From: an uncultured bacterium
GTDB lineage: Bacteria; Krumholzibacteriota; Krumholzibacteriia; JACNKJ01
Reading direction: 5' to 3'
Length of the DNA: 64,000 nt
NCBI GenBank assembly: GCA_964627205.1
Contig: CAZVHI010000007.1
Span: forward strand, 7,412 to 71,411
Made by a program: the position numbers and the translations under genes. Positions 11,891 through 46,002 of the stretch are shown here, piece by piece (position 1 is the stretch's first letter; the number at the start of each line of letters is the position of its first letter). The notes beneath the pieces were generated by a model. It saw only the letters and a list, made by a program, of their open reading frames with translations. It searched no databases and was not told the DNA's origin.

Positions 11891-14800
11891 CTATTTCAAC
11901 AGCAGCATTTTTTGGCTGTAGACCACTTCACCCATCTCGACGCGCACGAAGTAGAGTCCGCTGGACACCGAGCGGTCTTTCTCGTCCTTCCCGTCCCAGA
12001 CATAGCTGTAGACCGAGCCCGACGCCAGCTGCCCATCATGGAGGGTCCTGATGCGGCGGCCGCGGATATCGTGCACCGTCAGCGTGACCGGCAGGGCGCC
12101 GGCGCCCGCAGGGGTGGCGAAGCGGATGCGCGTGCTCGGGTTGAAGGGGTTGGGGAAGTTCGCGAAGAGCTTGCCCGCCGCCGGCATGGACGGCGAGTCG
12201 TCCACGCCCACGATTTGATCCTCGCGCGTGAACACACCCGTGCGGGCGGCGTTGGCCCGGAACATCTTCCAGCCGGGCAGGCCATTGTTGTACCAGCCGG
12301 GCATGTCCCAGATGTAGACGAAGCGGTCCCAGCCCATGATCGCCACCTCGGTCGTGAAGTTCTCGTCGATGTCGTCGATCGTGGGCGAGCTGCGCAACTC
12401 CGCGCCCGTGAGGATGGGGAAGCCAGGCATGGAACTGCCGTCCAGCTCCCAGGCGTAGAGATAGCCCTTTTCCGTCCCGAAGAGGATCTCCAGGTCGTGG
12501 TCGCCGTCCAGATCCACCACGACAGGGCTGGCCTCGCTGCTGTCCTCGAGATGGATGGGCCAGCCGGGCAAAGTATTAGCCTGGTTGTCCAGCACCGTGA
12601 CGTAACAGCTCGTGTAGGTCGGACAACCGGCTGCGACGATCTCCATCTGCCCGTCGCCCTCGAAGTCGACGAGCGCCGGGCTGGGTGTCAGGCCATCCGT
12701 GTCGGTTTCCAACCATACCGGGAAACCGTTGCCGTAGGAGCTGCCGTCACCACGCAGCACGTAGAGGGAATCGTTCTCGCAGAGCATGACGATCTCGTTC
12801 TCGTCGTCGTCGTCGATATCCCCCACCGAAGGGCTGGAGTGGATTGATCCGTTGAAGCTCAGGGGCCAGCCGGACAGAGTGCTGCCGTCGTGATTCCAGG
12901 CGAAGAGCTTGCTGGCGCCCCCGCTGCCGACGACGATCTCCAGCTCGGGGTCCTCGTCGAGCTGTGCGAGGCTCGCGCTGGAGCGGCTCCAGCCGCCGAT
13001 GCCCGTGGCGAAGACTCCGTCCGTGGCGGGGTTGCTGTCCCCGTCGATCAGCTCCGTGCCGTCGTGGTGCCAGGCGTAGAGCACGCCCGGCGTCTGGCTA
13101 ACGATGAAGATCTCGACCAGCTCGTCGCCGTCCACGTCGGCCACGGAAGGCGTCGCCCAGCACCAGTAGTCCGAGAAGCTCTTCGGCCAGCCGGGCAGCA
13201 CCTCGCCGTCTCCGCTGTAGACGTAGAGGGAGAAGGGTGTGATGCACGCGGCCACGATCTCCAGGCCGGCGGTGAAGGTGTCCACCTGGGCCAGGGCCAC
13301 GCTGGCCGCGAAGTCGTTGCCCTCGCCAGAGAGCACGCCGTAGGTGCTGGAGTCGTCGTCGCCGTCCAAGATCTCCACGCCATCGTGGTGCCAGGCGTAG
13401 ATGTACTTGGAGGCGGCCACGATCTCCTTGTCGCCGTCGCCGTCGATGTCCCCGATGACCACGCTGCTGGCGCTGGCCGCATCGGTCTCCAGGGGCCAGC
13501 CCTCCTGCATGGCCGGGTTCGTGCTGATGGAGTTCTCGGCGCTCTGGGCACTGCGGTAGCCGGTGGAGTCCATTGTCTCCACGACGAAGTAGTAGGTCGT
13601 GCTCTCCGCGAGCCCGTCGTTCCGGAAGTAGGCGTGCTCAGTAGGATCGGCGGAGACGAGTGTGTAGGGTCCTCCCTCGTCGAGGCTGCGATAGACGAGG
13701 TAGCCACCCGGCGGCTGCTCGCCCGGGATCTCCCAGGCCACGTCGATGATCGTGCTCGCGAAGCTCGAGTCGAGGTAGAGGCTGTCGGGCGGCGAGGGGC
13801 GCCGCACGACGATCGTGTCTACGAGGCTCTCGCCCAGCGGCCCGCTGAGGATCAGCTCGAAGCGGTTGGGCGAGGTCACGTCGCTCTCGAAGATGCTGAA
13901 GCCGTCAGACGAGCCCTTCTCGAGGAAACCCAGGACCGGCAGGATCACGGGGCCCGAGAGCACCGAGCCGTTCGGATCGAGGCCGAGGAGTGATGCGTCC
14001 CAGCCGCCCAGCGGCGTGCTGCCGTAGTTCTTCCATTCCGGCTCCAGCGTGTAGGTCTCGCCGGAGTCGGGCTCGCCGTCGCCGTCGCCGCCGGAGTCGT
14101 CGATGACGTAGGCGAAGAGATTGGGCACGGGGGCGTGGACGAGGACGTCGAGCTGGTCGGTCTGGGCGCCGCCATCGTAGCCAAGGGCGAGGTCGAGCAG
14201 GACGGGCAGGCCGTTTGCCAGGCTCTGCGGCGCGCTCAAGAGGAAGATCAGGTCGAGGTCGAGGCTGTCGCCCGCGGCGACCGTCGTGCCCGTGGCATGG
14301 CTGCCCTCCAGCACGCTCATCTGCCCGCCCGGCAGGCTGAGGTCCAGGGTCACGTTCGCCGCCGCCGCGTCGCCGCGGTTGTAGAGGCGCATCCCCAGGC
14401 GCACGGTCTCGCCCGCGTCGAGCAGGTCGTCCGCGTTGCCGACGATCGAACCCTCCGCGGCGGGGTCGTCCCGCACCTGCAGTAGGTCCACCGACAAGCG
14501 GGGCCCCGTCCCGGCACCCACGGTCACGCTGCCCTGCCAGATCAGGCGATTCCGGGCAACCACGCTGATCTCCAGGTCGCCCGGTGACTCGGCGTGCACC
14601 GGCAGCGCGATCTCGCCTAGCGCGTCGGTGTGCCCGATGGCGCGGTCCTCGCTGGCCTTGTAGGCCGTGACGCGCGCGCCCTCGACGGGCAGACCCTGGC
14701 TGTCGACCGATAGATACAGAGTGTCGCTGTCGAGCGTGAACGGAACCGTGAGACTCACGTCGAGAGGCCAGGGCGTGTCCAGCATGACATCGAGCGTGGG

Positions 14801-16627
14801 ATCGCCCATCAGCACGTAGGTGAGCTGGGTCCAGCGGTGGCTGCCCTCGATCATCCCGTAGGCCGCCCAGTCGTTGTGGCTCAGCGTGAAGACCTCGCCC
14901 ACGGTCAAGCTGTCGGCGAAGAGCCGGCTGTAGTAGGAGTTCTGATAGTAGACGCTCGTGTTGGGATAGGCCTCGCGCACCGTGCCGATGCTCGTGATGC
15001 TGCCGCCCTCGGGCGCAAGCAGGATCGCCTCGCCGAGGCTGTTGAAGTCGATGGCGCAGGACGTGCAGTTCAGGGCGTAGAAGTTGATCAGGTGATCGAG
15101 GCCGTTAGTCAGCGCCTCGACCTGGTCGGAGACGATGCTGCCGTCGCCCACGGACATGGTGTAGCGGTAGCCGTGCCCGACGTGGTGCAGGATGTGCGCG
15201 CGGGTCTCCATGTCGTTCAGGGTATCGGTGATCGTCTCTGGCAGGGAGCCCGGGTAGAGCCACCATGTCTCGTAGAAGCGGACCATGTCCATCTGCGGCG
15301 CCAGGGGCAGGATATAGTTGTTATAGACCATCTCGCAGTAGTCGGCGCCGTTGCGCGTGATCACTTCGTCCGGATCGCCGAGCTGGTACCAGGACGGGAA
15401 GAGAACCTCGCCGAGCAGGGTCACGTTGCGGACGTAGCTGGTGTCGGGCGCGCTGACGTAGGTCATGACCTTGTCCACCATGAGCTCCGCGCTCTCCGCG
15501 TCCCGCACGGGCATGCGGCCCAGGTGGATGTCCGCGATGAAGTCCACATCGTCGCCGGGAACGCCCCCGTAGGTCGACTCGCCGAAGAACTGGTTGCCGT
15601 TGGCGTTCCAGTTGCCGTCGAGCTGCGCGTAGTATAGATCGCAGGGTACGTCCTCCGCCGGCGAGTGGAAATTGGAGTGGGCGTAGCGCGCGGGAATGAC
15701 CCCCGTGTCGCCGGCAAGGATCAGGAAGCCTATCCCCCACTTCTCGTACGCGTCACGGATGAAGAAGCGGATGGTCTCCTGCAGGTCGGCGCCCTGGGGA
15801 TAGTTCTGCTGGATCCAGTCCGTGTCGCGCACGACGGTCGCTATGCCGAGGGCCGTCTTGTACTCGGCCAGGGTCTCGAAGGTCGCCACGTACTCGGGAG
15901 CCGTGATGATGAGCAGGTCGACGCCGCTGCCCTCCATGCTCGGCATGCCCCGCGGCGAGAAGATGCCACGGTCCGCGCGCATCTCGCTCTCGGGAGCGAA
16001 GCGCGCGACGTCCTGGGGATTCGCCACGCGGACTCTGTGCCTCTCGTGTCCGGCGGCGATCAGTGCGGCGGTCTCCCGCCGTGGAAAGATGGCGTCCGGG
16101 TCGGACTCCGTCTCCACCACGATGTCGCAGGCGAGCAAGCGCTGGAGCCGCGCGCCCTCGCCGTCCGACTCATAGAGCAGCGGCGCCAGCACGATCTCCG
16201 CGCTCGCGAAACCGCGCTGGACGAAGGTCCCGCTGGCGACGACGTGCTCCGCGGGGAAACGCTCGGACGCCTGCGCGTTCAGGGTGATCCGTTCGCCGGA
16301 CTCGCCCTGGGCACCTGCGAAGTCAGGCAGTGCCGTGGGCAGCGTCACGAGGTCCGCCTTCAGGTTCTCGAGCCGGATCGTGCGGATCCGTTCTCCGGCC
16401 GGGATGGCCAGGCTGATCGTTTGCAGGGGAAGCTCAGGCCTCTCTCCCATCTCAGTGCTCAGGGGGCTCCGGGCGACCAGCTCGCGGATTCCCGCCTCGT
16501 CGGCGGCAGCGCGCAGGTCTGCGCCCGCGGTCCAGTGATGCTGGACGCTGGCAGCAGATGCGAGGGTGGCGAAGCTGAGAAGGAGCAGACAGACAGATGG
16601 CAGGGCGCGATGGAGTGGCAGACTCAT
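11891..16627 (-). CDS. Gingipain-like C25 cysteine peptidase: propeptide, C25 domain, Ig-like and FN3 domains, FG-GAP-like propeller, FlgD-Ig/T9SS-type C-terminal domain
   Basis: ATG at 16627 behind GGAGG; signal peptide. CDLYYAQLDG, LGRMP, VGHG (His) and ALNCTSC (Cys), LMGDP. Repeated xxG(W/F)P motifs with DxDGDG loops. NFPNPFNPSTRIRF...WDGKD...SGLYFVR tail. Confidence 0.9.
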   Translation of the reverse strand: MSLPLHRALPSVCLLLLSFATLASAASVQHHWTAGADLRAAADEAGIRELVARSPLSTEMGERPELPLQTISLAIPAGERIRTIRLENLKADLVTLPTALPDFAGAQGESGERITLNAQASERFPAEHVVASGTFVQRGFASAEIVLAPLLYESDGEGARLQRLLACDIVVETESDPDAIFPRRETAALIAAGHERHRVRVANPQDVARFAPESEMRADRGIFSPRGMPSMEGSGVDLLIITAPEYVATFETLAEYKTALGIATVVRDTDWIQQNYPQGADLQETIRFFIRDAYEKWGIGFLILAGDTGVIPARYAHSNFHSPAEDVPCDLYYAQLDGNWNANGNQFFGESTYGGVPGDDVDFIADIHLGRMPVRDAESAELMVDKVMTYVSAPDTSYVRNVTLLGEVLFPSWYQLGDPDEVITRNGADYCEMVYNNYILPLAPQMDMVRFYETWWLYPGSLPETITDTLNDMETRAHILHHVGHGYRYTMSVGDGSIVSDQVEALTNGLDHLINFYALNCTSCAIDFNSLGEAILLAPEGGSITSIGTVREAYPNTSVYYQNSYYSRLFADSLTVGEVFTLSHNDWAAYGMIEGSHRWTQLTYVLMGDPTLDVMLDTPWPLDVSLTVPFTLDSDTLYLSVDSQGLPVEGARVTAYKASEDRAIGHTDALGEIALPVHAESPGDLEISVVARNRLIWQGSVTVGAGTGPRLSVDLLQVRDDPAAEGSIVGNADDLLDAGETVRLGMRLYNRGDAAAANVTLDLSLPGGQMSVLEGSHATGTTVAAGDSLDLDLIFLLSAPQSLANGLPVLLDLALGYDGGAQTDQLDVLVHAPVPNLFAYVIDDSGGDGDGEPDSGETYTLEPEWKNYGSTPLGGWDASLLGLDPNGSVLSGPVILPVLGFLEKGSSDGFSIFESDVTSPNRFELILSGPLGESLVDTIVVRRPSPPDSLYLDSSFASTIIDVAWEIPGEQPPGGYLVYRSLDEGGPYTLVSADPTEHAYFRNDGLAESTTYYFVVETMDSTGYRSAQSAENSISTNPAMQEGWPLETDAASASSVVIGDIDGDGDKEIVAASKYIYAWHHDGVEILDGDDDSSTYGVLSGEGNDFAASVALAQVDTFTAGLEIVAACITPFSLYVYSGDGEVLPGWPKSFSDYWCWATPSVADVDGDELVEIFIVSQTPGVLYAWHHDGTELIDGDSNPATDGVFATGIGGWSRSSASLAQLDEDPELEIVVGSGGASKLFAWNHDGSTLSGWPLSFNGSIHSSPSVGDIDDDDENEIVMLCENDSLYVLRGDGSSYGNGFPVWLETDTDGLTPSPALVDFEGDGQMEIVAAGCPTYTSCYVTVLDNQANTLPGWPIHLEDSSEASPVVVDLDGDHDLEILFGTEKGYLYAWELDGSSMPGFPILTGAELRSSPTIDDIDENFTTEVAIMGWDRFVYIWDMPGWYNNGLPGWKMFRANAARTGVFTREDQIVGVDDSPSMPAAGKLFANFPNPFNPSTRIRFATPAGAGALPVTLTVHDIRGRRIRTLHDGQLASGSVYSYVWDGKDEKDRSVSSGLYFVRVEMGEVVYSQKMLLLK

Positions 16628-16712
16628 CCAGGCCTCCAAGGGCTGTGATCCTGATGGCGACACGGCAAGTGCCGGCGCCTGAGGAGATTTCCAGGTGAGC
16701 AGAGAGTTCATA

Positions 16713-16741
16713 ATTATACCATGTGCAAGGCAGGGCCACAA
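16713..16741 (-). promoter_or_regulatory. sigma70 promoter (extended -10) for the C25 peptidase gene
   Basis: Minus strand TTGTGG (16741-36), N17, TATAAT (16718-13), with TG at the extended -10 position. Confidence 0.7.
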
Positions 16742-16762
16742 ATAGGCTATGCCGCAGGGGTC

Positions 16763-16810
16763 GGGAAAGAGAGGGGCCGCCCCATTCCAGACGGGGCGGC
16801 CCTGTTTCCC
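16763..16810 (-). terminator. Intrinsic terminator after the tldD-pmbA operon
   Basis: 10-bp GC stem GGGCCGCCCC / GGGGCGGCCC (16774-83, 16793-802), followed on the minus strand by TCTCTTTCCC. Confidence 0.75.
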
Positions 16811-16838
16811 GCGGATTCCCGGAGGGCCTTTCAGGCTG

Positions 16839-18188
16839 CTAGAAGTCCGTTCCGCTGGAGAAGCGGAAGTTCCGGACGACCATGGAAGGGAGGGCCATGT
16901 CCCCCAGCACCTCCGTCTTCCCGAGCGCTACCACGTTGCCGAACAGGTCGAGGAGGCTCTGGTTGAAGCGGAAGTTCTTCACGGGACCGGTCCGCTGGCC
17001 GTTCTCGATCCTGAAGGTGCCGTCGCGGGTCATGCCCGTGACGACCATACGCATCGGGTCCACGATGTTCGTGTACCAGAGACGGGTGACCAGGACCCCG
17101 TGCTCCACGCCCGCGAGCAGCTCGTCCTGGGTGGCCTCGCCGCCGTGCAGCACGGGGAAGAAGGGGAAGGCGCCCCAGCTATTGGGGGCCGGCAGGCCGT
17201 GTCCTGTCGCTTCCTGACCCGTCAGCTGCGCGCTGAGCCGGTCGTGGAGGAAGCTGCTCAGGACGCCGTTCTCGATCAGGTTGATCTTTCGTGTATCGAC
17301 GCCCTCCCCGTCGAAGCTGATTCCGAAGAGGCCTTCGAGACCAGGATCCTCCGACAGGGTGATGTTCTCGCCGAAGACCTTCTCGCCCAGCCTGCCCGCG
17401 AGCGGGCTGCGCTTCTCGGCGACAGCCATGCCGTTGAAGCCGAGGTAGGTGAGGAACCAGACCAGATCGCGCATCGCCTCGGGCTCGAAGAGCACCGTGT
17501 ATTCCCCAGGCGCCAGATCCGCGGGCTCCTGACTGTCGAGCGCCCGCCGGCAGGCGTCCTCGGCCACCCGCACCGGGTCCACGTCCGCGGCGCGTCGGAC
17601 CAGGACACGGCTCCGCCCCGCGCCGTCGCCCTTTTGCGCGCTGACCTCGAAGATCGTGCGGCTCTTGCGCCCGAAGCGGTAGAGGCCGGTGCTGTTCGCC
17701 ACGGCGAAGGGCTCGATGCTCCCGTAGTCGCCGATGCTCCCCTCGCTCGTGAGCGCGATGCCGCCCACCTCGAGGCCGTCCCGCGCTGCGACGTCCACCG
17801 CCGCCCGCACCCATTCCGCGCGCGTGTCCGCCGTGACTTCCGCCGTGCCTGCGTCCCAGGCGGAGTCCTCCCGGCGCTCGTCGCCCTGGTGGAAGTCCAG
17901 CACGCGGTCGCTCTCCTCCTGGATCCGTGCCAGCGCCGTCGCCTCCTGCACAGCCTTCTCCAGGCTCGCATCCGTGAAGTCGTTCGTGGTCGCGAGACCC
18001 ATCTTGCGCCCCACCCGCACACGGACGCGCAGTTCGTAGCGCTCCTCGGAGACGTTCTGGGTGATGCGGTTCTCGCCGTAGCGCGTGAGGTGCTCGCGGC
18101 CGCCACCTAGCACGACTTCGGTCTCGTCCGCCTCGCTGCAGCCGAAGACCCGATCACGGATGTCGCGGAACTCCTTCTCGCCGATCAT
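16839..18188 (-). CDS. pmbA: TldD/PmbA family protein (PmbA/TldE-like subunit)
   Basis: ATGA overlap with tldD. LTRYGENRITQN, YTVLFEPEA, FDGEG, LVTRLWY, TGMTRDGTFRIENG, FRFN. No HExxGH motif. Confidence 0.85.
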   Translation of the reverse strand: MIGEKEFRDIRDRVFGCSEADETEVVLGGGREHLTRYGENRITQNVSEERYELRVRVRVGRKMGLATTNDFTDASLEKAVQEATALARIQEESDRVLDFHQGDERREDSAWDAGTAEVTADTRAEWVRAAVDVAARDGLEVGGIALTSEGSIGDYGSIEPFAVANSTGLYRFGRKSRTIFEVSAQKGDGAGRSRVLVRRAADVDPVRVAEDACRRALDSQEPADLAPGEYTVLFEPEAMRDLVWFLTYLGFNGMAVAEKRSPLAGRLGEKVFGENITLSEDPGLEGLFGISFDGEGVDTRKINLIENGVLSSFLHDRLSAQLTGQEATGHGLPAPNSWGAFPFFPVLHGGEATQDELLAGVEHGVLVTRLWYTNIVDPMRMVVTGMTRDGTFRIENGQRTGPVKNFRFNQSLLDLFGNVVALGKTEVLGDMALPSMVVRNFRFSSGTDF

Positions 18189-19630
18189 TCGCTCACCCCC
18201 ACTCGCATCTTGCGGAAGCGGGTCGGCGCCGAGCCGTGGGTCATCCGGGCGATCTGCCCGGGCTCTCCCTTGCCGCAGTTCATCACGCCGAAGGGCCGCC
18301 ACCAGCTCTCGTTGCACACAGCGTCGCAGGACGCCCAGAAGTCCGGGGTGCGGCTCTGGTAGGTGCAGCCCTTCAGCATGCGCGCCTTCTTGCCGCTTTT
18401 AATCTCCCAGCCGATCTCCGTCGAGAACTGGAAGTTGAGTCGCATCTGGTCGATGCTCCAGCTGCGATTGGTCTCCATCCAGATGCCGTCCTCCGTGTCG
18501 GCGATCAGGTCGTCGAGCTCCCAGCTGCCGGGCGCGATCCCCAGGTTAGGGATGCGGATGATGGGCACGCGGTTCCAGCCCTCGGCGCGGTTGCAGCCGC
18601 GACTGCGTTCGTTCCCCTCGACCTGCGCGAGCTCTCGGCTCGTGAGATAGGCCTTGAAGCCACCGTTCTCCACGACGTGCCAGCGTTGCGCGGCCACGCC
18701 CTCGTCGTCCCAGCCGCGCGTCGCGAGCCCGCGCTCGAGCGTACTGTCGGCCACGAGGTTGACGTGCTCCGAGCCGTAGCGGAAGTCGCCCAGCTTCTCG
18801 GGTGTGAGGAAACTGCGGCCGGCGAAGTTGGCCTCCATCCCCAGCACGCGGTCCAGCTCGCTGGCGTGGCCGCAGGACTCGTGGATCTGCAGGGCCATCT
18901 GCGACCAGTCCAGGATGATGTCGCGCTCGCCCACCGGGCAGGTATCCGCCGAGAGCAGGGCCACGGCCTCGCCCGCGATCCGCTCGGCGTTCTCCTCCAT
19001 CTCGTACTCGGCCAGGACCTCGTAGCCGGCGCCGAGGTGCATGCCGCCCGCGGAGTTCGGGAAGCTGCGCCGCTGGATCGTGTTGCCGTCCGCGGCGACG
19101 ACCATGATGCCTCCGCCGCTGGCCAGCAGGTCCTGCTCGAGCTCTGCGCCCTCGCTGGAGACGAAGAGGATCTTCTGCTGATCGAAGAGCATTTGGGCCT
19201 GACCGACCTGCACGCGTTCGTCCATGTGCAGTTCGCGCTCGAGCCGGTAGAGCAGTGAGAGCTTGTCGTCGCGCGATACCGTGAACGGGTCGATGGCCCG
19301 GGGCGTGGACCAGCTCCCCTGCTGCGCGGGCTCGCGCGCCAGCTCGACGGGCTCGGTCATCACGCGGGCGCTGGCCTCGGCGATGGCGACGGCCCGTACC
19401 GCCGCTTCGCTCAAGCTGTCCGCCTCGAGGCGGTCAGTGGAGGCGAAGCCCCAGGCGCCGCTTTTCAGGACACGGATCCCCACGCCCTGGCTCGAGCGCA
19501 TCTCCGCCTGCGACAGGGAGCCGTTCTTCACGACGAGCTCTTCGCTCCGCCCCTGGACCCAGCGCGCGTCGGCGTAGTCGGCGCCGCGCGACCGGGCGGT
19601 GTCCACTGCCGCTCGAACCCTTTCCTTCAT
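18185..19630 (-). CDS. tldD: TldD family metalloprotease
   Basis: GIRVLKSGAWGFA, IHESCGHASELDR (HExxGH), WDDEG, PIIRIPN, CGKGEPGQ. Confidence 0.9.
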   Translation of the reverse strand: MKERVRAAVDTARSRGADYADARWVQGRSEELVVKNGSLSQAEMRSSQGVGIRVLKSGAWGFASTDRLEADSLSEAAVRAVAIAEASARVMTEPVELAREPAQQGSWSTPRAIDPFTVSRDDKLSLLYRLERELHMDERVQVGQAQMLFDQQKILFVSSEGAELEQDLLASGGGIMVVAADGNTIQRRSFPNSAGGMHLGAGYEVLAEYEMEENAERIAGEAVALLSADTCPVGERDIILDWSQMALQIHESCGHASELDRVLGMEANFAGRSFLTPEKLGDFRYGSEHVNLVADSTLERGLATRGWDDEGVAAQRWHVVENGGFKAYLTSRELAQVEGNERSRGCNRAEGWNRVPIIRIPNLGIAPGSWELDDLIADTEDGIWMETNRSWSIDQMRLNFQFSTEIGWEIKSGKKARMLKGCTYQSRTPDFWASCDAVCNESWWRPFGVMNCGKGEPGQIARMTHGSAPTRFRKMRVGVSE

Positions 19631-19755: not shown

Positions 19756-20898
19756 TCAGCGGCCGGGGCGGTAGCGCTCGATGGGTCGGGCCAGCTCGCG
19801 CTTCTTGCGCTGGTTCTGCACGAGCAGGTAGCCGGTGACCAAGAGCACGAGAAGCGCGAAGAGGAAACCCCGGCGATTGGCCGAGAAGAAGTTGCTCGGC
19901 CACCAGAAGCGCAACTCCGAGCCATCGTAGCGATAGCGGCCGCCGGAAACATCGAGGCGGACGTGCGCCGTCTCGACCCGATAGCTCCCGTGGAGCTCGT
20001 ACTCCCCGAACTGGGGCTTGAGGATCTCGTCCTCGTGTTGCAGCGTGAGAGCCTTGTCGGGCTCGACCACCTGGAGGAGATTCTGTTCGGGTGTGTGCAG
20101 CACTGGCAGATCCCGCACCTCGAAGCGCCGGCCCTCTCCCCAGTCCACAACCAGACCCTCGGGATAGAGCCAGTGCTCGCTGTCCGGCCGGTCCGCCGCG
20201 GTGGGGAACTCCAGGTCCAGGATCTTCCAGAAGCCGTACTTGACGGAGATCAGTCGGCCGGGCTGCGCGAGGAAATTCTGCACCTCCGCCAGACGGCGAC
20301 GCTGCCAGCGCTCCACCTCCCGCTCGGCTGCGAAGTAGAGCGCCGGAAAATCCGCCCCCCGCTTGAGCTCGATGAGCGAGAGGCCCGGCGTCTCCCCCAG
20401 CGCCCGCGCCAGGAGAAGGACCGGGTCACCAGGATCCCCGCAGGCACTCGCACCGAGCGCGGACAGATGCCACTCCGCCAGGATCCCCTCGGCCAGGCAG
20501 GGGACGGGACCGTAGCGGCCACTCGTGAGGCTGTCGCAGATCGCGAGCAGCTCCGCGTTCGTGGGCGCGAGATCCTCGAAGAGACAAGCCCCGCGGCGTC
20601 TGCGGATCACTTCCCCGGCCGGAGGTGCGTCGCCCGTGTCGCGGAGTTCGCGCATGCGCGCCCAGCGTCCCGGGCCCTCCCCTGCCGGCCTCCCGGCGAG
20701 AGCGTCCCTCGTCCACTCCGCCAGGTAGTCCCACTCGAGCAGGCGCAGGGCGAGCTGCGTGGGATCCTCTGGATCGAGCAGCTCCACCCCGCCCGCCGCC
20801 CATGCGGCCAGGTCCCGAGTGTTCCCGGCCCGGTCCTCGTCCCCGGCCTGCGCCGGGAGAGGCAGTAGGAGCAGGATCGCAAGCAGGATCTTCAGCAC
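19756..20898 (-). CDS. Hypothetical exported protein with a C-terminal membrane anchor
   Basis: Signal peptide MLKILLAILLLLPLPAQA; C-terminal TM GFLFALLVLLVTGYLL followed by a basic tail; overlaps the upstream stop. Confidence 0.7.
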   Translation of the reverse strand: MLKILLAILLLLPLPAQAGDEDRAGNTRDLAAWAAGGVELLDPEDPTQLALRLLEWDYLAEWTRDALAGRPAGEGPGRWARMRELRDTGDAPPAGEVIRRRRGACLFEDLAPTNAELLAICDSLTSGRYGPVPCLAEGILAEWHLSALGASACGDPGDPVLLLARALGETPGLSLIELKRGADFPALYFAAEREVERWQRRRLAEVQNFLAQPGRLISVKYGFWKILDLEFPTAADRPDSEHWLYPEGLVVDWGEGRRFEVRDLPVLHTPEQNLLQVVEPDKALTLQHEDEILKPQFGEYELHGSYRVETAHVRLDVSGGRYRYDGSELRFWWPSNFFSANRRGFLFALLVLLVTGYLLVQNQRKKRELARPIERYRPGR

Positions 20899-21212
20899 GC
20901 GTCCCTCCCCCGCCGGGCGATCAGCTGCCAGTAGTGATCGAGGACCCGGGCCAGTCCCTCGAGCGCCTCCTCCGGGCTGCGGATCCGGGCCTCCCAGTTC
21001 GGGTCCGATCCCGTCTGGAGCCGGAAGAGATCCCGGTGCGGAAAGATGACTGCCAAGAGCTCGCCCTCGAGCCGGTACTCCCGGCGGAATCCGCTCTCCT
21101 CCAGACGGACGGCGGGATCCAGCTGCCGGAGCTGACGGTCGAGACGGCGCAGGAGCACGGCCACCACCGGCTCCATCTCCGGCCCGTGCACGATGACCGG
21201 CTCGGGATTCAC
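20892..21212 (-). CDS. Hypothetical small cytoplasmic protein
   Basis: 106-aa ORF whose ends overlap both co-directional neighbours; no family recognised. Confidence 0.6.
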   Translation of the reverse strand: MNPEPVIVHGPEMEPVVAVLLRRLDRQLRQLDPAVRLEESGFRREYRLEGELLAVIFPHRDLFRLQTGSDPNWEARIRSPEEALEGLARVLDHYWQLIARRGRDAC

Positions 21213-21934
21213 AGCTCCGCTCCTTCCTCCGGAGGCGGCTCGGGCTTCGCGTTCAGGTGACGGAGGGCCTCGAGGTAACCGCGGTAGGGCCTGCGGATCC
21301 TTTCTCCCCCGGAAAGGAGGGGAGACAGGGAGGGACGCTCCGGTTCCAGGAGCGCGCCCACAGGCAGGCTGCCCCAGACGCCGAAGGCCTCGGGCCGCGG
21401 GGGCGGGAACCCACCCAGTCCCAGCAGGAAGAGCGGATCGCCCCCGTGTGGCCGGGGATCGGCGAAGCTGCCTTCCGAAGGTCCCTCCTCGAGGTAGAGC
21501 CAGGACGCGCGCCTACGCCCCGGTGGATCCAGCGCAAAGACCCAGCGGAGGGAGCGGTGCCGGGACAGCAGGGGAAGCAGGGCATGCGGCGCAAGGGTCA
21601 GCCCCGGCCGGGGCTCGATGGCGACGGCTGACGCACCGGCGTCGAAGCGCAGCCCCAGGTGGCCGGGCCCGGCTCCGAGGAATCGCGCCGCCGCGGGCAG
21701 TCGTGCCGCGGAGACGGCCAGAAGCGCGGGTTCGTCCGACTCGGCCGCGCAGAGGGCCAGGTTGACGGCGAAGGGGAGAGGCCAGGGGCTCGACGGTGTG
21801 CCGGCGATCGCGACCTCGTGGCAGGGCGGCCGGGACGGCAGGGGCCGGTCGGGATCCGTCGCGCTGCTCAGGAAGTACTTCCGGACGCTGCGAATGTGGT
21901 TCTTCCTGCGGCCGGGAGTCCCCGCGAGGGCCAT
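21209..21934 (-). CDS. Hypothetical protein, possibly a degenerate (P-loop-less) MinD/ParA-fold protein
   Basis: RBS GAGGAG; starts 13 nt after the ParA-CBM stop. The segment VAIAG-TPSSPWPLP-FAVNLALCAAESDEPALL resembles the MinD N-terminus without the Walker A. Fold call is inference. Confidence 0.55.
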   Translation of the reverse strand: MALAGTPGRRKNHIRSVRKYFLSSATDPDRPLPSRPPCHEVAIAGTPSSPWPLPFAVNLALCAAESDEPALLAVSAARLPAAARFLGAGPGHLGLRFDAGASAVAIEPRPGLTLAPHALLPLLSRHRSLRWVFALDPPGRRRASWLYLEEGPSEGSFADPRPHGGDPLFLLGLGGFPPPRPEAFGVWGSLPVGALLEPERPSLSPLLSGGERIRRPYRGYLEALRHLNAKPEPPPEEGAEL

Positions 21935-21947: not shown

Positions 21948-23027
21948 TCAGGATACGACGAGCAGCGAGTTCTCCAGCCCCATGTCGTTGACCGCCGTCT
22001 CCTGGTGTTCGGGATCCGTCACCCAGCGCCCGTCGATGATGTAACGATACTCGTAGCTGCCGGGGATGAGCGGGAGCACGACCTGCCAAACGCCGGGGCG
22101 CTCGGGCAGAGGCTCCAGGGGGATGCCGCCCGGATTCCAGTGGTTGAAATCCCCGGTCAGGTAGACCTCGCTGGCGTCGGGAGCGCGCAGCGTGAAGCGG
22201 ATGCCGTCGGTGCAGGGCTGGGGCCCGAAGAGCAGCTCCTCCAGCTCGACGTCGCGCTCGAACTTCAACTCCGCGAGGCGCCCCCAGAGCTCCTCGGCGA
22301 GGCCCTCGAAGTCCAGGCGCACCGGTCCGGCCTTCGACAGTCGCGTGACGGGCACGCCCCCCGCGGCAGCCATCTTCACGCGCACGCTCGAGCGCACGCG
22401 CGTCTCGAGCAGGTTGATGCGATCGCGCCGGGTCAAGGTCTCGTAGAGCTCCCGGCTGAAGAGTGTGCGGCGGTTGAACTGGTTCGCCACGACGAAGCAA
22501 GGCGGCTTCTTGCCGGTCTCTTCCTCCAGGACCTCCAGGGTCTCGAGGATCTTCTCGAGGCCGTGAAGGGTATATGTGCTGCTGTCCACGGGGACCAGCA
22601 GCGCGTCCGCTGCGACGAGGGCGTTGAACGTGAGCAGGCCGACCGATGGCGCCGTGTCGACGACGATCCAGTCGTAATCCTCCCCGTGCCTCAGGAGGGC
22701 CGAGAGGAGCCGGCTCTCGCGCCCCGGCTGCCGCGCGAGCTCCTGCTCCGCAGCGGAGAGGATAATCCCGCTCGGCACGACGTCCAGGTTCTCGTCGATG
22801 CGGACCGCGGTCTGATCGAAGGGCGCCGCGGAGTCGAGGAGCATGTCGTAGGCGCCCAGGTCCCGGTCCTCGGCCTGGATCCCCAGGCCCAGCGAGGCAT
22901 GACCCTGGGGGTCGAGGTCAACGAGCAGGACCCGGAAACCCTCCTTCGCCCAGGCTGCAGCCAGGTGGATGGCGATGGTGGTCTTCCCGCACCCACCCTT
23001 CTGGTTGACGACAGCGAGTACATTCAT
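21948..23027 (-). CDS. ParA/Soj family ATPase fused to a C-terminal glycogen-binding (CBM48 / AMPK-beta-like) domain
   Basis: ATG at 23027 behind CAGGAGG. NQKGGCGKTT, LVDLDPQG, IVVDTAP. C-terminal FTLRAPDASEVYLTGDFNHWN...GVWQVVLPLIPGSYEYRYIIDGRWVTDP. Confidence 0.88.
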   Translation of the reverse strand: MNVLAVVNQKGGCGKTTIAIHLAAAWAKEGFRVLLVDLDPQGHASLGLGIQAEDRDLGAYDMLLDSAAPFDQTAVRIDENLDVVPSGIILSAAEQELARQPGRESRLLSALLRHGEDYDWIVVDTAPSVGLLTFNALVAADALLVPVDSSTYTLHGLEKILETLEVLEEETGKKPPCFVVANQFNRRTLFSRELYETLTRRDRINLLETRVRSSVRVKMAAAGGVPVTRLSKAGPVRLDFEGLAEELWGRLAELKFERDVELEELLFGPQPCTDGIRFTLRAPDASEVYLTGDFNHWNPGGIPLEPLPERPGVWQVVLPLIPGSYEYRYIIDGRWVTDPEHQETAVNDMGLENSLLVVS

Positions 23028-23139
23028 CCTGAAAACCTCCTGAGCAAGGCCGTTTGGGAAGCCACTCAGGGGACCCGGTCGTTCCAATCCGCAGGTCGGG
23101 CTGGGGTCTCCTTCGCCTGCATCTTTTCAGGGAGCTAAA

Positions 23140-23178: not shown

Positions 23179-23607
23179 TCAGCTTCGCACGAGGAGAAGA
23201 GTGAGAACGAGGCCGAGCAGGAAGCCGCCGAAGACCTCGCTCCACGTGTGGCCGAGCAGCTCGCGTGTCTTCTCGCGCGCGAAGTGGCGCGAATCGATGA
23301 GCTCGTCGAGGATCTCGTTGAGCACACGGGCCTGTTTGCCGACTTCCTGGCGCAGTCCCGTCGCCTCGAGGATGAAGTAGAGACTGAGAACGGCTGTGAC
23401 CGCGAAGAGCGCGGAGTCGAAGCCGGCGACGCGCCCCGCGCCCACGGCGAGAGCCGTGACCACGGCCGTGTGGCTGCTGGGCATCCCCCCCGTCTCGAAG
23501 AAGCGGTAGAGCTTCAGTCGGCGCTCGCGAACGCTCTCCACGACGACCTTGTAGAGCTGAGCCGCGATGCCGCCGGCGAGGGCCGCCCAGAGGATGGGAT
23601 GGATCAT
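23179..23607 (-). CDS. Divergent PAP2 family protein (DUF212)
   Basis: ATGA overlap. AQLYK, ETGGMPSSHTA, EATGLRQEVG, LGHTWSEV. Confidence 0.92.
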   Translation of the reverse strand: MIHPILWAALAGGIAAQLYKVVVESVRERRLKLYRFFETGGMPSSHTAVVTALAVGAGRVAGFDSALFAVTAVLSLYFILEATGLRQEVGKQARVLNEILDELIDSRHFAREKTRELLGHTWSEVFGGFLLGLVLTLLLVRS

Positions 23608-24872
23608 GCCGCCTCCTCCTCGACGATTCGGCCGCGCAGGCGCCTCGTGATCTCGAACCAACCTGTGACCGCGAAGACGAGCAGAAGCGGTTCGATCTCC
23701 CAGCGGAAGCGGCTGCGGACGAAGTAGCTACCATAGAGCAGCGAGTACTCCGTGAAAAGGAAGAAGGCGGGCAGCAGGCGCCGCCAGCGCCAGCGCCAGA
23801 ACCACACGCCCGCGACGGCGAAGGGCAGGATGAAGGCGTAGAAGGTCTGGTAGGCGATGCTCCAGCGCTCGGGATAGCCGAAGCGGGCCACGTCCTGGCA
23901 CCACCAGAAGTAGTAGATCTTCTTGAGGAAGAGGCTGAAGTAGTAGCCCGGTCTCTCCCGGATATAGGAGAAGGCCCGCATGTAGAACCAGGTCTGTAGC
24001 TCGGGTTCCGGCAGGGATTCGACGATTTCCCGGTCGACCACCTGCCAGAAGTTCTCCTCCTCGGTGAAAGCGCCCCAGGTGTAGCCGCCCGCGAAGGGGT
24101 TGTTGCCGACCAGGAAGTTGAAGCCGCCGTTGCTGCTCGTCAGCAGCAGCGTGTCATGGACCCGGGCGTTGCGGATCACCCAGGGGCTCCAGGCGAGCGC
24201 CAGCAGGAGCAGATAGGAGACGGTGCGGCGGAGACGTCCCGGATTCGGGTAACGCCAGAGCCGGAACAGGAAGAGGATCCCGAGCAGGGCTAGCGGCGGC
24301 GAGGTGAGGATGGCCAGTCCGTGCAGGATCCCAGTGAGCCCTCCGATCAGGAGGGGTCTCGGCCCCTGCACGCGGTCCATGATGTTCATCAGGATCAGGA
24401 CGAAGGTCATGATGAAGGTCGTCGAGAAAATGGCCAGGCTGTAGATCGCGAACAGCGGGTAGGCCAGCAGCAGGACGAAGCTCCAGATCATGGCGCGGCG
24501 GCCGAACCAGCGTCCGGCCAGTTCGGCGGCCAGGATTGCGTTGGCCAGCGAGGCCAGGATCTGGATCACGCGCAGGCACGAGACCCAGTGCACGGACACC
24601 ATCTTCAGCAGGGCCATCAGGCAGGGATAGAGGGGCGGGATGAAGCTGCGAATCGGAACGTCGCAGTAGTAGAAGGGCATGAAATAGCCGCGCCCCGCCA
24701 CGATGTTGTCGGAGATCACGCCCGCCTCGAAGCCGTGCACCGGCAGCTTGTCGCCCAGGAGGATCCAGGCCAGGAGACGCAGCGCGAGGCCGGCCAGAAG
24801 GCCCAGGACCAACAGCTGCCGGGGCAATTCACGGGCGCCCGACTCGCGGATCCGAGGACGCGGGGTGGCCAT
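23604..24872 (-). CDS. ArnT/PMT-like (GT-C, GT39/83) membrane glycosyltransferase
   Basis: ATG at 24872 behind GAGGA; multiple TMs. NIVAGRGY, SFIPPLYPCLMA, PWVIRN...SSNGGFNFLVGNN, SRFRWEIEP. Confidence 0.75.
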   Translation of the reverse strand: MATPRPRIRESGARELPRQLLVLGLLAGLALRLLAWILLGDKLPVHGFEAGVISDNIVAGRGYFMPFYYCDVPIRSFIPPLYPCLMALLKMVSVHWVSCLRVIQILASLANAILAAELAGRWFGRRAMIWSFVLLLAYPLFAIYSLAIFSTTFIMTFVLILMNIMDRVQGPRPLLIGGLTGILHGLAILTSPPLALLGILFLFRLWRYPNPGRLRRTVSYLLLLALAWSPWVIRNARVHDTLLLTSSNGGFNFLVGNNPFAGGYTWGAFTEEENFWQVVDREIVESLPEPELQTWFYMRAFSYIRERPGYYFSLFLKKIYYFWWCQDVARFGYPERWSIAYQTFYAFILPFAVAGVWFWRWRWRRLLPAFFLFTEYSLLYGSYFVRSRFRWEIEPLLLVFAVTGWFEITRRLRGRIVEEEAA

Positions 24873-29568: not shown

Positions 29569-31373
29569 CGGACGCTCCTTGCGGGCTGGGGCAGGATGGT
29601 GACGGGGATGGACTGGTGCCCGCGGGCCTCGATCGTGCCGGGCAGCCGCACGCGCTGCACTGACAGCAGCCGGCGCGGCTTCTCCTTCTGCCCCCGGGCC
29701 GGCGCGGGCAGGAGCTCGCGGTACCAGGTGGGCAGGGCGAGCTCCCGGCCGCCGAGAATCGGGTCGGCGCCCGGGCCCTCGAGCCAGAGCAGCCAGTCAC
29801 TGCGCAGTTCGAGGCGCGCGAGGAGCTCGAGGAGGGAGGCGTGGTCCCGGAAGCGGTAGAGCTCGGGCTGGCGCTGGGCGTCCCAGCTGTGAAAGCTGCG
29901 GCCGTCGGCCACGTGCAGGCGGTAGTCGCCGGGTGGCAGGGCCCTGCCCGAGGCAAGCTTGCCGGACTCGCCGGCGAAGGGCCAGCTCAGGAGGAAGGGC
30001 TTCCGGTCCCCCTCGCGGAGACGTACGCGCAGCGCCCAGCTCTCCCCCGCGCGGATCGCGGGCCGGTCCACCGCCAGGTCGAGCAGTTCGAGCGGATCGG
30101 CGTCCTCCCGCCAGGCGAGGCTCAGCGCGAGGGAGTCGACGGGCAGCGTTCCCCCGGGATTCTGGAAGAGCACCTCGAGGACGGACTGGAACCAGGCGCC
30201 CGCGGCGGCCAGGCTGCCCTCGCCCGCGAAGCCCTCGCTCAGTTCCAGCAGCGAGCCCGCCGCGACGGCCGGCTCGCCAAGCCGCAGCGTCAGGCCCAGG
30301 TGGAGGCCGCCCTCGTCGCGGGAAGACAGGATGCCCTGCGCCCAGCCCTGGAGCGCGATGCGGCCCAAGAGCGGCGCGAGGCGAGGATGGCGCGCGAGCT
30401 CGAACTCCGCGCTGCGGGACGGACGGCCCTCCGCGTCCAGCTCGAGGCGTAGGGGAAGCATCGCCGGCGCCGGTCCGAGGCGACCGTAAACGCCGGCGCG
30501 CCCGTCTTGCAGGAGGGTGCCGACCGGCTGTCCCACCGACGCGATCTTGAAGGAGGTGTTCAGGCTGGGCATGACCGCGTGCACCCGGACGGAGGCCAGG
30601 GGCAGCGCGAGCGGTCCCTCCTCGAGGAAGGGATGGCCGAAGGCCCAGACGCGGTCGCCGTCGACGTGGCTGACGGTGCCGATGCTGGCCACCGAGACCG
30701 GCCCGCTGAGCAGCTGCGCGGCGATCGCCGCGCCGGGCTCCAGCTTGGAGGCCACGCCGGCTGCGGTCCCCGCATTGCCCGTACTGATGCCCAGGGGAAG
30801 CAGCGCGAGCCCCTGTCCGGAAAGCCCGCGCTCCAGTCGTGCCAGGGCGGAAGGATCCAGCCCGCCGACCGAGAGCCTTAGCGCCTCGCCCTCAGGCCCC
30901 GGCGGGAGACGGGTCGGCTGGGCATCGTCGCCGCCGAGGAAGGGCAGCTCGCGCAGGCTGCCGTGCAGTGCGTCGGGCCCTGTCCAGGGACGGTCCGCCA
31001 GCGACAGCATCGCCGCCGCCGGCGTGACGAGGGCCAGCGGCTCGCGGGAGAAGGCATAGGTGAAGGCGATGGCCCCCAGCCAGCGTCCGTCGACATAGAC
31101 TGGACTGCCGCTCATCCCCTGGCTGACGCCACCGCGCGCCTGCAGCGCTTCGTCCCCGCGGACCAGGACGAGGTCGTAGGCGCCGCGTCCGCTGATCCGG
31201 TCCACGATCTCCACGGGAAAGCTGCTGATGCTGTCGCCCTCGAAGACCGTGAGCGCCGTGCCCTTCAGGCCGGGCCGGATCTCGCCGAGGGGAAAGACCT
31301 CCACGGCGCCCGCGCCGGTGAACGCGAGGGTCGAGAGGACGAGGGCGAGACGCAGGGAGTGCACGGGACGCAT
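29565..31373 (-). CDS. SpoIVB peptidase S55 domain-containing secreted protein
   Basis: Signal peptide; GLKGTALTVFEG, GGVSQGMSGSPVYVDG (Ser motif) and GTVSHVDGDRVWAFGHP (His motif). Confidence 0.88.
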   Translation of the reverse strand: MRPVHSLRLALVLSTLAFTGAGAVEVFPLGEIRPGLKGTALTVFEGDSISSFPVEIVDRISGRGAYDLVLVRGDEALQARGGVSQGMSGSPVYVDGRWLGAIAFTYAFSREPLALVTPAAAMLSLADRPWTGPDALHGSLRELPFLGGDDAQPTRLPPGPEGEALRLSVGGLDPSALARLERGLSGQGLALLPLGISTGNAGTAAGVASKLEPGAAIAAQLLSGPVSVASIGTVSHVDGDRVWAFGHPFLEEGPLALPLASVRVHAVMPSLNTSFKIASVGQPVGTLLQDGRAGVYGRLGPAPAMLPLRLELDAEGRPSRSAEFELARHPRLAPLLGRIALQGWAQGILSSRDEGGLHLGLTLRLGEPAVAAGSLLELSEGFAGEGSLAAAGAWFQSVLEVLFQNPGGTLPVDSLALSLAWREDADPLELLDLAVDRPAIRAGESWALRVRLREGDRKPFLLSWPFAGESGKLASGRALPPGDYRLHVADGRSFHSWDAQRQPELYRFRDHASLLELLARLELRSDWLLWLEGPGADPILGGRELALPTWYRELLPAPARGQKEKPRRLLSVQRVRLPGTIEARGHQSIPVTILPQPARSVR

Positions 31374-31420
31374 GCCGGATCCTTCCGCGGCGAGAGGCGT
31401 GAGAACGGGAGCGGCTACGA

Positions 31421-31449
31421 AGTCTACGGGGGGTGCCTTGGGCGGTCAA
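31421..31449 (-). promoter_or_regulatory. sigma70 promoter of the S55-to-DUF212 operon
   Basis: Minus strand TTGACC (31449-44), N17, TAGACT (31426-21). Confidence 0.7.
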
Positions 31450-31464
31450 GCGGGGACTAGCCTG

Positions 31465-32915: not shown

Positions 32916-32919
<4 letters not shown>
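31465..32919 (-). CDS. nuoN: NADH-quinone oxidoreductase subunit N
   Basis: GTG start at 32919 overlapping the nuoM stop. FLALELLS, EGALKYFLLG, GFKISAVPFHFW, KRMLAFSS. Confidence 0.95.
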
Positions 32920-34451
<1,532 letters not shown>

Positions 34452-34467
34452 CGTCCCCTCGACATAG

Positions 34468-36405: not shown

Positions 36406-36415
36406 TTTCCTCCGC

Positions 36416-36718
36416 TCAGCTCCGGAGCAGCGAGGCGCGATCCAGGTCGACGCTCTCGCTGCGACGGAACAGCGCGATGATGATGCCCAGCCCGATGGCG
36501 GCCTCGGCGGCCGCGACTGCCATGATGAAGAAGCAGAGGACCTGGCCGTCCAGGTCGCCGCGCAAGCGCGAGAAGGTTACGAGTACCAGGTTGACTGCGT
36601 TGAGCATCAGCTCGATCGACATGAACACTACGATGGCATTGCGGCGCAGCAACACGCCAGCGACGCCGAGGGTGAAGAGCAGGAAGCCGACGATCAGGGC
36701 GTGGTTGTAGTCGAACAC
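36416..36718 (-). CDS. nuoK: NADH-quinone oxidoreductase subunit K
   Basis: [28 protein letters not shown]. Confidence 0.96.
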
Positions 36719-36728
36719 GTCCCCCTCC

Positions 36729-37223: not shown

Positions 37224-37233
37224 GCGTCCCTTC

Positions 37234-45973: not shown

Positions 45974-46002
45974 GACACTCCCTTGCGTGCGCCGGGCGGC
46001 GC

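Follow-up and report, generated by a model that had tools for sequence, protein, structure and literature searches.

A ParA-type ATPase fused to an AMPK-type CBM48 module, beside a partner with a ParB-like peptide: a candidate cassette for positioning glycogen granules

Introduction

How might a bacterium place its glycogen? The question is raised by an open reading frame (ORF) at positions 21948-23027, minus strand, of a 64,000-nucleotide (nt) stretch of DNA from an uncultured member of the Krumholzibacteriota (assembly GCA_964627205.1, contig CAZVHI010000007.1, positions 7,412 to 71,411; the whole stretch is hereafter called the window). The encoded protein, ParA-CBM48, joins a ParA ATPase domain to a carbohydrate-binding module (CBM). 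ATPases of the ParA/MinD family position chromosomes, plasmids, carboxysomes, chemoreceptor arrays, flagella and division sites. Glycogen is the most common bacterial carbon store, and the placement of its granules is usually assumed to be passive. No ParA/MinD positioning system for glycogen was found described in a literature search, and nothing relevant emerged for ParA or McdA in combination with glycogen, CBM48 or AMPK1_CBM. A first-pass annotation of the window, made from the sequence, had taken ParA-CBM48 for an orphan ATPase that may tether or space glycogen granules on the nucleoid, and its statement that no characterised example was known agrees with our failure to find any ParA-CBM48 fusion in that search.

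We propose, with a probability of about one half, that ParA-CBM48 would be the ATPase of a conserved three-gene positioning cassette of the ParA type, whose cargo or anchor would be an alpha-glucan (glycogen) granule. The cassette may be how some bacteria place or apportion their glycogen stores.

Results

A fusion of two recognisable domains

Coordinates below are those of the window, and residue numbers are those of the window's ParA-CBM48 protein unless another protein is named. The ORF encodes 359 amino acids (aa) followed by a stop codon. A Shine-Dalgarno sequence, AGGAGG (23036-23041, minus strand), can be read directly 8 nt 5' of the ATG at 23027, and the N-terminus of the protein reads MNVLAVVNQKGGCGKTT. 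Residues 1-252 (22272-23027, minus strand) make up a Soj-type ParA ATPase domain that contains the Walker A sequence NQKGGCGKTT with K10 and K15, the aspartates D37 and D39, the Walker B aspartate D124, and three basic residues of the predicted DNA-binding face (R187, R216 and K218). They are followed by a linker (residues 253-268; 22224-22271, minus strand) and by an AMPK-beta-type CBM48 module (residues 269-359; 21951-22223, minus strand), in which W297, R328, W335, M349, G350 and N353 occupy the positions equivalent to sugar contacts.

Both halves matched Pfam families above the gathering scores: AAA_31 at residues 1-171 (E 3e-46), with CbiA at E 7e-21, and, towards the C-terminus, AMPK1_CBM at residues 284-358 (E 1.6e-13; 51.1 bits against a cut-off of 26.8) and CBM_48 at residues 267-335 (E 1.2e-11; 45.2 bits against 22.4). 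When the N-terminal 260 residues were compared with sequences in the PDB, the best matches were ParA 8ray, a mycobacterial ParA-like protein, and the Soj proteins of Thermus thermophilus and Helicobacter pylori (Soj structures 1wcv/6iub); for the C-terminal 109 residues they were the carbohydrate-binding modules of AMPK beta1 and beta2. An AlphaFold2 model built from a 32-sequence alignment had a mean predicted local distance difference test score (pLDDT) of 84 and a predicted template modelling score (pTM) of 0.73. In Foldseek searches its ATPase domain superposed on the Soj proteins of Bacillus subtilis, T. thermophilus and H. pylori with template modelling (TM) scores of 0.85-0.93 and E-values down to 1e-23, and the Pfam matches and the model both describe the C-terminus as a beta-sandwich CBM. 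Confidence dips to a pLDDT of 58-67 between the two domains, where sequence conservation is also weak, which indicates that the linker is flexible.

The first-pass reading of this ORF as an intact Soj-type ParA joined to a CBM48-like module was borne out at the exact coordinates. Every motif that it quoted (KGGCGKTT, DLDPQG, VVDTAP, NQFNRRT, SSVRV and YEYRYIIDGRW) is present, and the family check that it had suggested, for AAA_31/CbiA together with AMPK1_CBM, gave the expected matches. Altogether, the sequence and the model place ParA-CBM48 among the ParA/MinD (deviant Walker A, SIMIBI) ATPases, and the module that it carries is a genuine CBM48 of the AMPK type.

Residues conserved in both domains

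Conservation was measured in 118 full-length homologues from a protein search, each at least 41% identical to the window protein, and in a second set, of 83 loci, which is more diverse (at least 14 phyla) and for which the CBM positions lay outside the search pattern. The signature lysine K10, the Walker A lysine K15, the Walker A'/switch aspartates D37 and D39 and the Walker B aspartate D124 are each present in 118/118 homologues. The predicted DNA-binding residues are nearly as constant: R187, aligned with R189 of B. subtilis Soj, is kept in 115 homologues, an Arg or Lys at 216, aligned with Soj R218, in 117, and K218, also on this face, in 116. Catalytic residues and the two Soj arginine positions vary hardly at all in the 83 loci either. 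Equivalence of R187 and R216 was read from the alignment to ParA 8ray_B together with the numbering of B. subtilis Soj. On that alignment the Arg residues stand where the first-pass annotation had placed them.

Within the CBM, W297 and W335 (W100 and W133 of AMPK beta1) are invariant in both sets (118/118 homologues and 83/83 loci). R328, at the position of AMPK K126, is found in 116/118 homologues, and an Arg or Lys stands there in 81/83 loci, Arg in about 60% of loci and Lys in about 40%. G350 (AMPK G147) is invariant among the homologues and follows a hydrophobic residue, M349 in the window, that corresponds to AMPK L146; N353 (AMPK N150) is kept in 117/118 homologues, with Asn or Asp in 83/83 loci. 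We take AMPK beta1 W100, K126, W133, L146 and N150 to be the beta-cyclodextrin contacts of structure 1z0n.

A signature of the family is the Cys in the Walker A sequence KGGCGKTT (Cys13; codon at 22989-22991), present in all 118 homologues at a position where canonical Soj proteins presumably have Val, Ser or Ala. This invariant Cys may mark a site of redox or metal sensitivity.

A partner gene with a ParB-like N-terminus

ParA-CBM48 heads a tightly packed run of minus-strand genes, separated from the next by a gap of 13 nt, after which successive genes overlap by 4 nt and 7 nt; from this spacing the cassette genes are predicted to be translationally coupled. The gene directly downstream, the partner gene (241 aa; 21209-21934, minus strand), starts 13 nt past the ParA-CBM48 stop codon and has a GGAG 5' of its start. 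Its N-terminus carries GRRKNHIRSVRKYFLSS (21863-21913, minus strand), which a motif profile and the ParB literature identify as a local variant of a family consensus, [KR]xLGRGLEDVSHLFLS, found at the start of the corresponding gene in related loci. Variants there include PRNLRDISHLYLS, PRHIRDIAHLYLS, HHIDEVAHHFLS and PKTLADVSHLFFS, the window having RKNHIRSVRKYFLSS; its variant NHIRSVRKYFLS is more diverged than the LGRGLEDV consensus.

In the 78 loci with enough downstream DNA, a hidden Markov model (HMM) of the peptide matched 57 adjacent downstream genes at E < 1e-3 and 17 more at weaker scores (about 74 of 78), counts that are partly circular as the HMM was trained on the same genes. Elsewhere in 4,458 six-frame ORFs only one match reached E < 1e-3, and it was a downstream gene at +404. 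Despite the circularity, this near absence of matches elsewhere argues for specificity.

The consensus LGRGLEDV conforms to the ParABS-type partner motif L-x-R/K-x-L-x-x-L/I. In Myxococcus xanthus, ParB binds at the dimer interface of ParA through its residues L11, R13, L15, L18 and I19, which also activate the ATPase (PMC12462528). For H. pylori, a ParB peptide, 1-MAKNKVLGRG-10, was crystallised on ParA-DNA; its L7 and R9 are conserved (PMC11229316). The core of the partner peptide, L-x-R-x-L-x-x-[VI], equals L11/R13/L15/L18 of the M. xanthus protein (PMC12462528), and its counterpart in H. pylori ParB is VLGRG (PMC11229316). Residues 1-27 of the partner are disordered in the AlphaFold2 model (pLDDT < 50), as expected of such a peptide. 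A PDB search with the 25-aa partner peptide returned chance zinc-finger matches only. The pocket that receives the peptide in M. xanthus ParA was mapped by hand onto ParA-CBM48 through the ParA alignment (8ray numbering, offset 19): V116 falls on the invariant Q95, L150/G151/L152 on V129/G130/L131, and L155 on the invariant F134. These pocket residues are conserved but differ in part from those of M. xanthus, which would suit a cognate peptide with a C-terminal extension of its own, SHLFLS.

We regard the partner peptide as a putative functional analogue of the ParB N-terminus. A cognate partner with a peptide of this type makes the ATPase part of a cycling system of two or three components; the orphan status assigned to it at first must be given up in favour of membership of a cassette with a ParB-mimicking pseudo-ATPase partner (see below). 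The accompanying claim, that neither parB nor parS is adjacent, holds for the ParB domain and for parS: TGTTNCACGTGAAACA had 0 matches in 64 kb with up to 3 mismatches allowed. What that claim missed is the ParB-like ParA-binding peptide in the adjacent gene.

Bodies of the partner and of the third protein

Behind the peptide, the partners resemble the ATPase that they would regulate. Among ten partners from different phyla, six matched CbiA, ParA or AAA_31 in Pfam, some above threshold, and in a profile-profile comparison the main partner family (34 loci) matched a ParA domain profile at 94.6% (E 6.6e-8, 154 columns). Nearly all partners lack Walker A; an Eisenbacteria-like clade alone has kept it. 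The partner of the window has five close homologues (41-50% identical) and belongs to a narrow subfamily, for which an exhaustive HMM search found 14 representatives at E <= 1e-10 and 16 at E <= 0.001. This subfamily is too diverged for HMMER, so that its link to the main family is drawn through the motif and through profile-profile comparison with hhalign (96.5%, E 7.6e-10, N-terminal 83 columns). Its AlphaFold2 model is an alpha/beta domain (mean pLDDT 80, pTM 0.77) whose best Foldseek matches in the PDB are almost all SIMIBI nucleoside triphosphatases (FleN, BcsQ, MinD, FlhG, HypB, NifH and MeaB); the matches are weak, with TM scores of about 0.5 and E-values from 2e-3. From these comparisons and the model, the partner is a probable pseudo-ATPase of the same superfamily, with a degenerate MinD/ParA fold that has no P-loop and with a ParB-type peptide in front of it.

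A third gene is present in 42 of about 78 loci, where it encodes a member of one of two families, c4 (about 190-230 aa, 26 loci) or c7 (about 105-130 aa, 16 loci including the window). The window copy (106 aa; 20892-21212, minus strand) overlaps the partner gene by 4 nt. The c7 family is related to c4 (hhalign probability 71%), whose proteins are longer, through their C-terminal part. The c4 proteins are acidic (median isoelectric point (pI) 5.35, net charge -6), and the family had no Pfam match; the top PDB sequence match of its profile, the NucS nuclease domain, was not significant (E 0.27). Past a variable linker, c4 proteins end in a conserved peptide, [LV][ST]xEE[IV]xEF[LM] (for example L020:5653-6216 and L067:11922-12485), which resembles a short docking motif.

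The ParB-like peptide is modular, occurring on different protein bodies in different phyla. It stands directly on the c4 domain in Gemmatimonadota and Rokubacteria and on proteins of about 480-600 aa in Planctomycetota. In six Gemmatimonadales/Rokubacteria loci (L036, L053, L061, L062, L075 and L076) a LGRGLEDVSHLFLS peptide is joined to c4 and the pseudo-ParA gene is missing, which suggests that c4 is the ancient functional partner, or else that domains have been shuffled. A separate observation was made in a Margulisiibacteriota locus (L058:5536-6462, plus strand), in which the SHLFLS peptide lies on a true P-loop protein (GMGKT) unrelated to the usual pseudo-ParA partner.

A fourth gene in the run (380 aa; 19756-20898, minus strand) overlaps the third by 7 nt and has a 377-aa counterpart at the same position in the related locus L003. 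It was not among the recurrent neighbour clusters, being seen only in close relatives, and its membership of the system is uncertain. Neither Pfam nor PADLOC gave a match for the partner, third or fourth gene of the window.

Spread of the cassette

The nearest named relatives of ParA-CBM48 in a protein search, at 75-82% identity, come from metagenome-assembled genomes (MAGs) of Candidatus Krumholzibacteriota; the G+C content of the window is 64-73%. In a scan of one genome per GTDB species, at least 586 of the 600 stretches listed encode a relative, and 80 loci were kept. All 80 of these species genomes (from the at least 586 candidates) carry the full-length fusion, residues 1 to about 358, and they represent at least 14 phyla. 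The lineages are Krumholzibacteriota, Latescibacterota, Eisenbacteria, Zixibacteria, Fibrobacteraceae, Gemmatimonadales, Desulfobacterota, Myxococcota, Bacteriovoracaceae, Planctomycetota, Omnitrophota, Rokubacteria, Nitrospirae, Margulisiibacteriota and Glassbacteria. The three-gene layout recurs in an independent Desulfomonilia locus and on a contig that is Myxococcota-like; in Planctomycetota the layout has two genes. The chromosomal contigs that bear the cassette are large, some reaching several Mb.

A profile of the fusion built from 17 diverse members scored 7,992 of 8,000 candidate protein clusters at E <= 1e-30, and the best 120 clusters were all two-domain. Named members among these 120 are called only "AAA family ATPase" or "chromosome partitioning protein", generic labels that invite misreading of the gene as a second chromosome partition gene, and nearly all of their NCBI records are MAGs. 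In conclusion, the ParA-CBM48 cassette is widespread and unstudied.

Alpha-glucan genes near the cassette

Eighty-two loci with 10-kb flanks were scanned for motifs of GlgA (KxGGL), GlgC, GlgP (pyridoxal phosphate site), GH13, GH77 and the GlgB N-terminus. In 12 of them another alpha-glucan or AMPK1_CBM gene lies nearby: GlgB in 2, a small CBM protein in 5 and a CBM-GH13 protein in 5. As a rough estimate this rate is several-fold above chance, a modest link. The two GlgB genes, with GlgB_N, CBM_48 and alpha-amylase domains, lie beside the cassette at L022:11304-12476 (plus strand) and L034:3053-5269 (minus strand); the L022 ORF ends at 391 aa and may be truncated or frameshifted. The small proteins (91-119 aa), from Desulfobacterota and Planctomycetota, are stand-alone AMPK1_CBM modules with a Lys-rich tail, encoded 1.5-3.3 kb from the cassette (L020:6340-6642, L031:6425-6781, L069:7341-7613 and L024:13417-13722 on the minus strand, L047:8264-8548 on the plus strand). 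They could be extra granule adaptors. The AMPK1_CBM-GH13 proteins are alpha-amylases of about 800 aa with signal-peptide-like N-termini. In Eisenbacteria-like loci they are encoded 3-7 kb upstream of the cassette, all on the plus strand (L040:2007-4532, L041:2163-4610, L055:4641-7025, L060:1034-3550 and L065:4582-7047).

In some lineages, then, the CBM subtype of the cassette, with the same residues, also occurs on GH13 alpha-amylases and stand-alone proteins near it, and these neighbours indicate that the subtype serves alpha-glucan enzymes there. In a Krumholzibacteriota bin, starch/glycogen hydrolases are reported to be the most abundant class of glycoside hydrolases (PMC10936416). Among Gemmatimonadota, the classical route of alpha-glucan synthesis occurs in no more than about 11-22% of genomes (PMC10581226). 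Other matches of the scan were set aside: a GH77 candidate in L017 had no Pfam match, and several GH13-motif matches were antisense or chance.

A single Myxococcota-like locus (L088:8827-19221) has the cassette among storage-related genes. Ppx-GppA lies divergently upstream of it, a phosphoglucomutase follows 2 kb downstream and a phasin (a polyhydroxybutyrate granule protein) 7.6 kb downstream, and two ArsA/ParA-like ATPases are present as well.

Discussion

A proposed cycle

The features described above can be assembled into a cycle of the following kind. ATP binding would dimerise the Soj-like domain, as suggested by the intact deviant Walker A sequence and signature lysine, and the dimer would hold nucleoid DNA non-specifically through the conserved R187, R/K216 and K218 face. 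Conservation of these basic residues argues that the nucleoid is still the matrix. The dimer would also display two CBM48 modules on flexible linkers, so that a glycogen surface could be bound with avidity. The disordered LGRGL-type peptide of the partner would then enter the ParA dimer interface as ParB does, triggering hydrolysis and release of the tether, a step proposed because of the identity of the motif and the strict adjacency of the genes. Over repeated cycles granules would be held on the nucleoid, spaced, and shared between daughter cells.

MinD offers the nearest precedent for the appended module. The C-terminal amphipathic helix of MinD binds the membrane only in the dimer. ParA-CBM48 belongs to the same ATPase superfamily, and its C-terminal appendage would likewise bind a surface strongly only as an ATP dimer, with a partner peptide triggering release. 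Pressed further, this analogy yields a more tentative proposal, in our estimate possible at best, of a self-organising system on a polysaccharide surface: ATP-driven dimerisation would convert weak, monovalent glycogen binding into strong, bivalent binding, the dimer would grip the nucleoid and the partner would reset the system.

Relation to known systems

Chromosomal ParA/Soj proteins (B. subtilis, T. thermophilus, H. pylori, M. xanthus) share with ParA-CBM48 about 33-36% identity, TM scores of 0.85-0.93, the signature lysine of the deviant Walker A, basic residues at Soj R189/R218, and a partner with the ParB LGRGL core. They differ in that the cassette has neither ParB (the ParB/Srx CTPase and helix-turn-helix domains) nor parS, and in that its ATPase bears a C-terminal CBM48 and an invariant P-loop Cys and faces a pseudo-ATPase partner. 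Membership of ParABS was rejected on the lack of an adjacent parB and on a score of 118 bits against the NCBIfam ParA_partition cut-off of 180.

The McdA/McdB, PpfA/TlpT, ParC/ParP and PomXYZ systems likewise set a ParA-family ATPase beside a fast-evolving partner, with a cargo presumed to be other than DNA, and there too stimulation of the ATPase is expected to come from a disordered N-terminus of the partner. Structurally, McdA is clearly related to the ParA-CBM48 ATPase (Foldseek 6nop/6non). In the cassette, however, the ATPase and not the partner carries the only recognisable cargo module, the body of the partner is a MinD/ParA-like pseudo-ATPase, there is a third conserved gene, and the cargo would be a polysaccharide granule.

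For the C-terminal module the nearest solved sequences are the CBMs of AMPK beta (CBM48; 1z0n, 4y0g), whose Trp/Trp/Lys(Arg)/Asn positions it keeps. AMPK beta, plant PTST and SEX4 all use CBM48 as a non-catalytic targeting or sensing domain. Here the module sits instead on a bacterial P-loop ATPase, the equivalent of K126 is often Arg, and glucan binding is predicted from sequence.

BcsQ, another ParA/MinD ATPase tied to polysaccharide biology, matches the protein in Pfam (CBP_BcsQ, E 4.6e-14) and in Foldseek, but has no CBM. A BcsQ-type role was discarded, as TIGR03371 scored 88 bits against a cut-off of 158, the window has no cellulose synthase genes, and the cassette has no bcs genes nearby. 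Identity with MinD was excluded by the lack of an amphipathic membrane-targeting helix, by a minD_bact score of 36 bits against an NCBIfam cut-off of 213, and by a sequence and structure closer to Soj; no NCBIfam equivalog reached its cut-off for the protein. A role in anti-phage defence was also dismissed: PADLOC gave the ATPase only P-loop-level matches (E 1e-4 or weaker) and gave none for the other three genes of the run. A defence reading of c4 was dropped too, the matches being those of one c4 protein to candidate systems, weak and over 56 residues (E 2.7e-6).

Weighing the alternatives

Several points tell against glycogen positioning. The chief difficulty lies in the canonical ratchet, where the activator carries the cargo-binding element; a cargo bound by ParA itself needs another logic. 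The glycogen link, read from sequence, comes from the CBM alone, and the conserved Trp residues could serve a ligand other than a glucan. In Pfam searches of about 40 ORFs the 64-kb window has no glycogen genes (its sole glycosyltransferase is a GT4 at 61983-63236), and motifs of GlgA, GlgC and GlgP were found in 0/82 loci and GlgB in 2/82. The cycle gives no explained role to the third gene, nor to the partner's pseudo-ATPase body, and members of the family all come from uncultured genomes. As for the granule tethering or spacing suggested at first, it gains from the conservation of its sequence prerequisites across phyla and from the finding of a cognate partner; its link to glycogen itself is no wider than before.

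Because a cargo on the ATPase is unlike the textbook ratchet, three rivals were kept. Glycogen might be the matrix or a regulatory input, with CBM48 recruiting or regulating the ATPase as in AMPK and the cargo set by the partner and the third protein. In its favour, known systems bear the cargo-binding element on the activator, and the activating peptide is here mounted on variable bodies; the third gene is conserved in 42 of about 78 loci and has a C-terminal peptide motif of its own; and the appended module recalls the membrane-targeting helix of MinD. We consider it rather unlikely, as no candidate cargo can be named, neither the partner nor the third gene has a binding domain recognisable by Pfam or PADLOC, and the basic residues of the DNA face are still kept. 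That the module is a CBM48 fold which binds no alpha-glucan in vivo, and serves protein interaction or another ligand with the cargo left unspecified, is in our judgement doubtful. Sugar binding is absent from many CBM48 modules, those of branching enzymes for instance, the CBM of AMPK beta also makes protein contacts, and glg genes are not consistently linked to the cassette in the loci scanned; yet the most strongly conserved residues of the module are exactly those at the sugar-contact positions of AMPK beta, and its nearest relatives outside the fusion sit on GH13 alpha-amylase catalytic domains.

A DNA-partition system, in which the motif-bearing or third protein (weakly NucS-like) would be a new centromere-binding protein and the CBM an accessory, appears highly improbable. 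The Gemmatimonadota and Rokubacteria loci do have the type Ib par layout, a Soj-like ATPase followed by a protein of about 200 aa with an N-terminal activating peptide, and a comparison of the c4 profile with PDB sequences ranks the NucS nuclease domain first. That match, however, falls short of significance, the charge and pI of c4 proteins are those of acidic proteins, neither parS nor iteron-like or other repeats were found near the operon, the loci lie on chromosomal contigs of large size, and the invariant sugar-contact residues would be left unexplained.

If the more tentative proposal of a self-organising system is true, glycogen granules would be actively positioned, equally inherited organelle-like bodies in many uncultured phyla, and for the first time a ParA/MinD ATPase would be seen to recognise its cargo directly, by means of a carbohydrate-binding module. 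The architecture of the cassette is unusual for the field on three counts: the ATPase bears the putative cargo module, a pseudo-ATPase serves as the activator, and a ParB-type peptide has moved between bodies across phyla. This mobility of the peptide among protein bodies amounts to a natural experiment on the evolution of partner specificity in ParA systems.

Other genes of the window

Directly upstream of ParA-CBM48 lies a gene for a DUF212 (divergent PAP2) membrane protein (23179-23661, minus strand; Pfam DUF212, E 5e-38). A DUF212 gene occupies this place, on the same strand, in 23/75 loci, all of them Krumholzibacteriota, Latescibacterota or Fibrobacter-like. Such synteny, confined to related lineages, may reflect shared descent, and DUF212 is no more than a candidate component. 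Directly downstream of the cassette, at 16839-19630 (minus strand), is a TldD/PmbA metallopeptidase pair, which is also found in L003. Farther on, positions 11891-16927 (minus strand) encode a Peptidase_C25 protein of 1678 aa that has FG-GAP repeats as well as a FlgD_ig tail; in L002 and L003, too, a gene of this type stands within a few kb of the cassette, which indicates local synteny within the phylum.

Elsewhere in the window, positions 30000-38000 have a strong positive AT skew (about +0.2) over minus-strand complex I (nuo) genes, and several short plus-strand ORFs at 31649-32470 have a G+C content at third codon positions (GC3) of 0.93-0.95. The minus strand at 41943-45254 encodes a 1103-aa UvrD-family helicase with an RNase_T/DnaQ-like exonuclease (residues 722-875) between the helicase N and C domains, and at 45146-46684 a SAM hydroxide adenosyltransferase (SAM_HAT_N, SAM_HAT_C) with an N-terminal extension of about 240 aa that has no family match.

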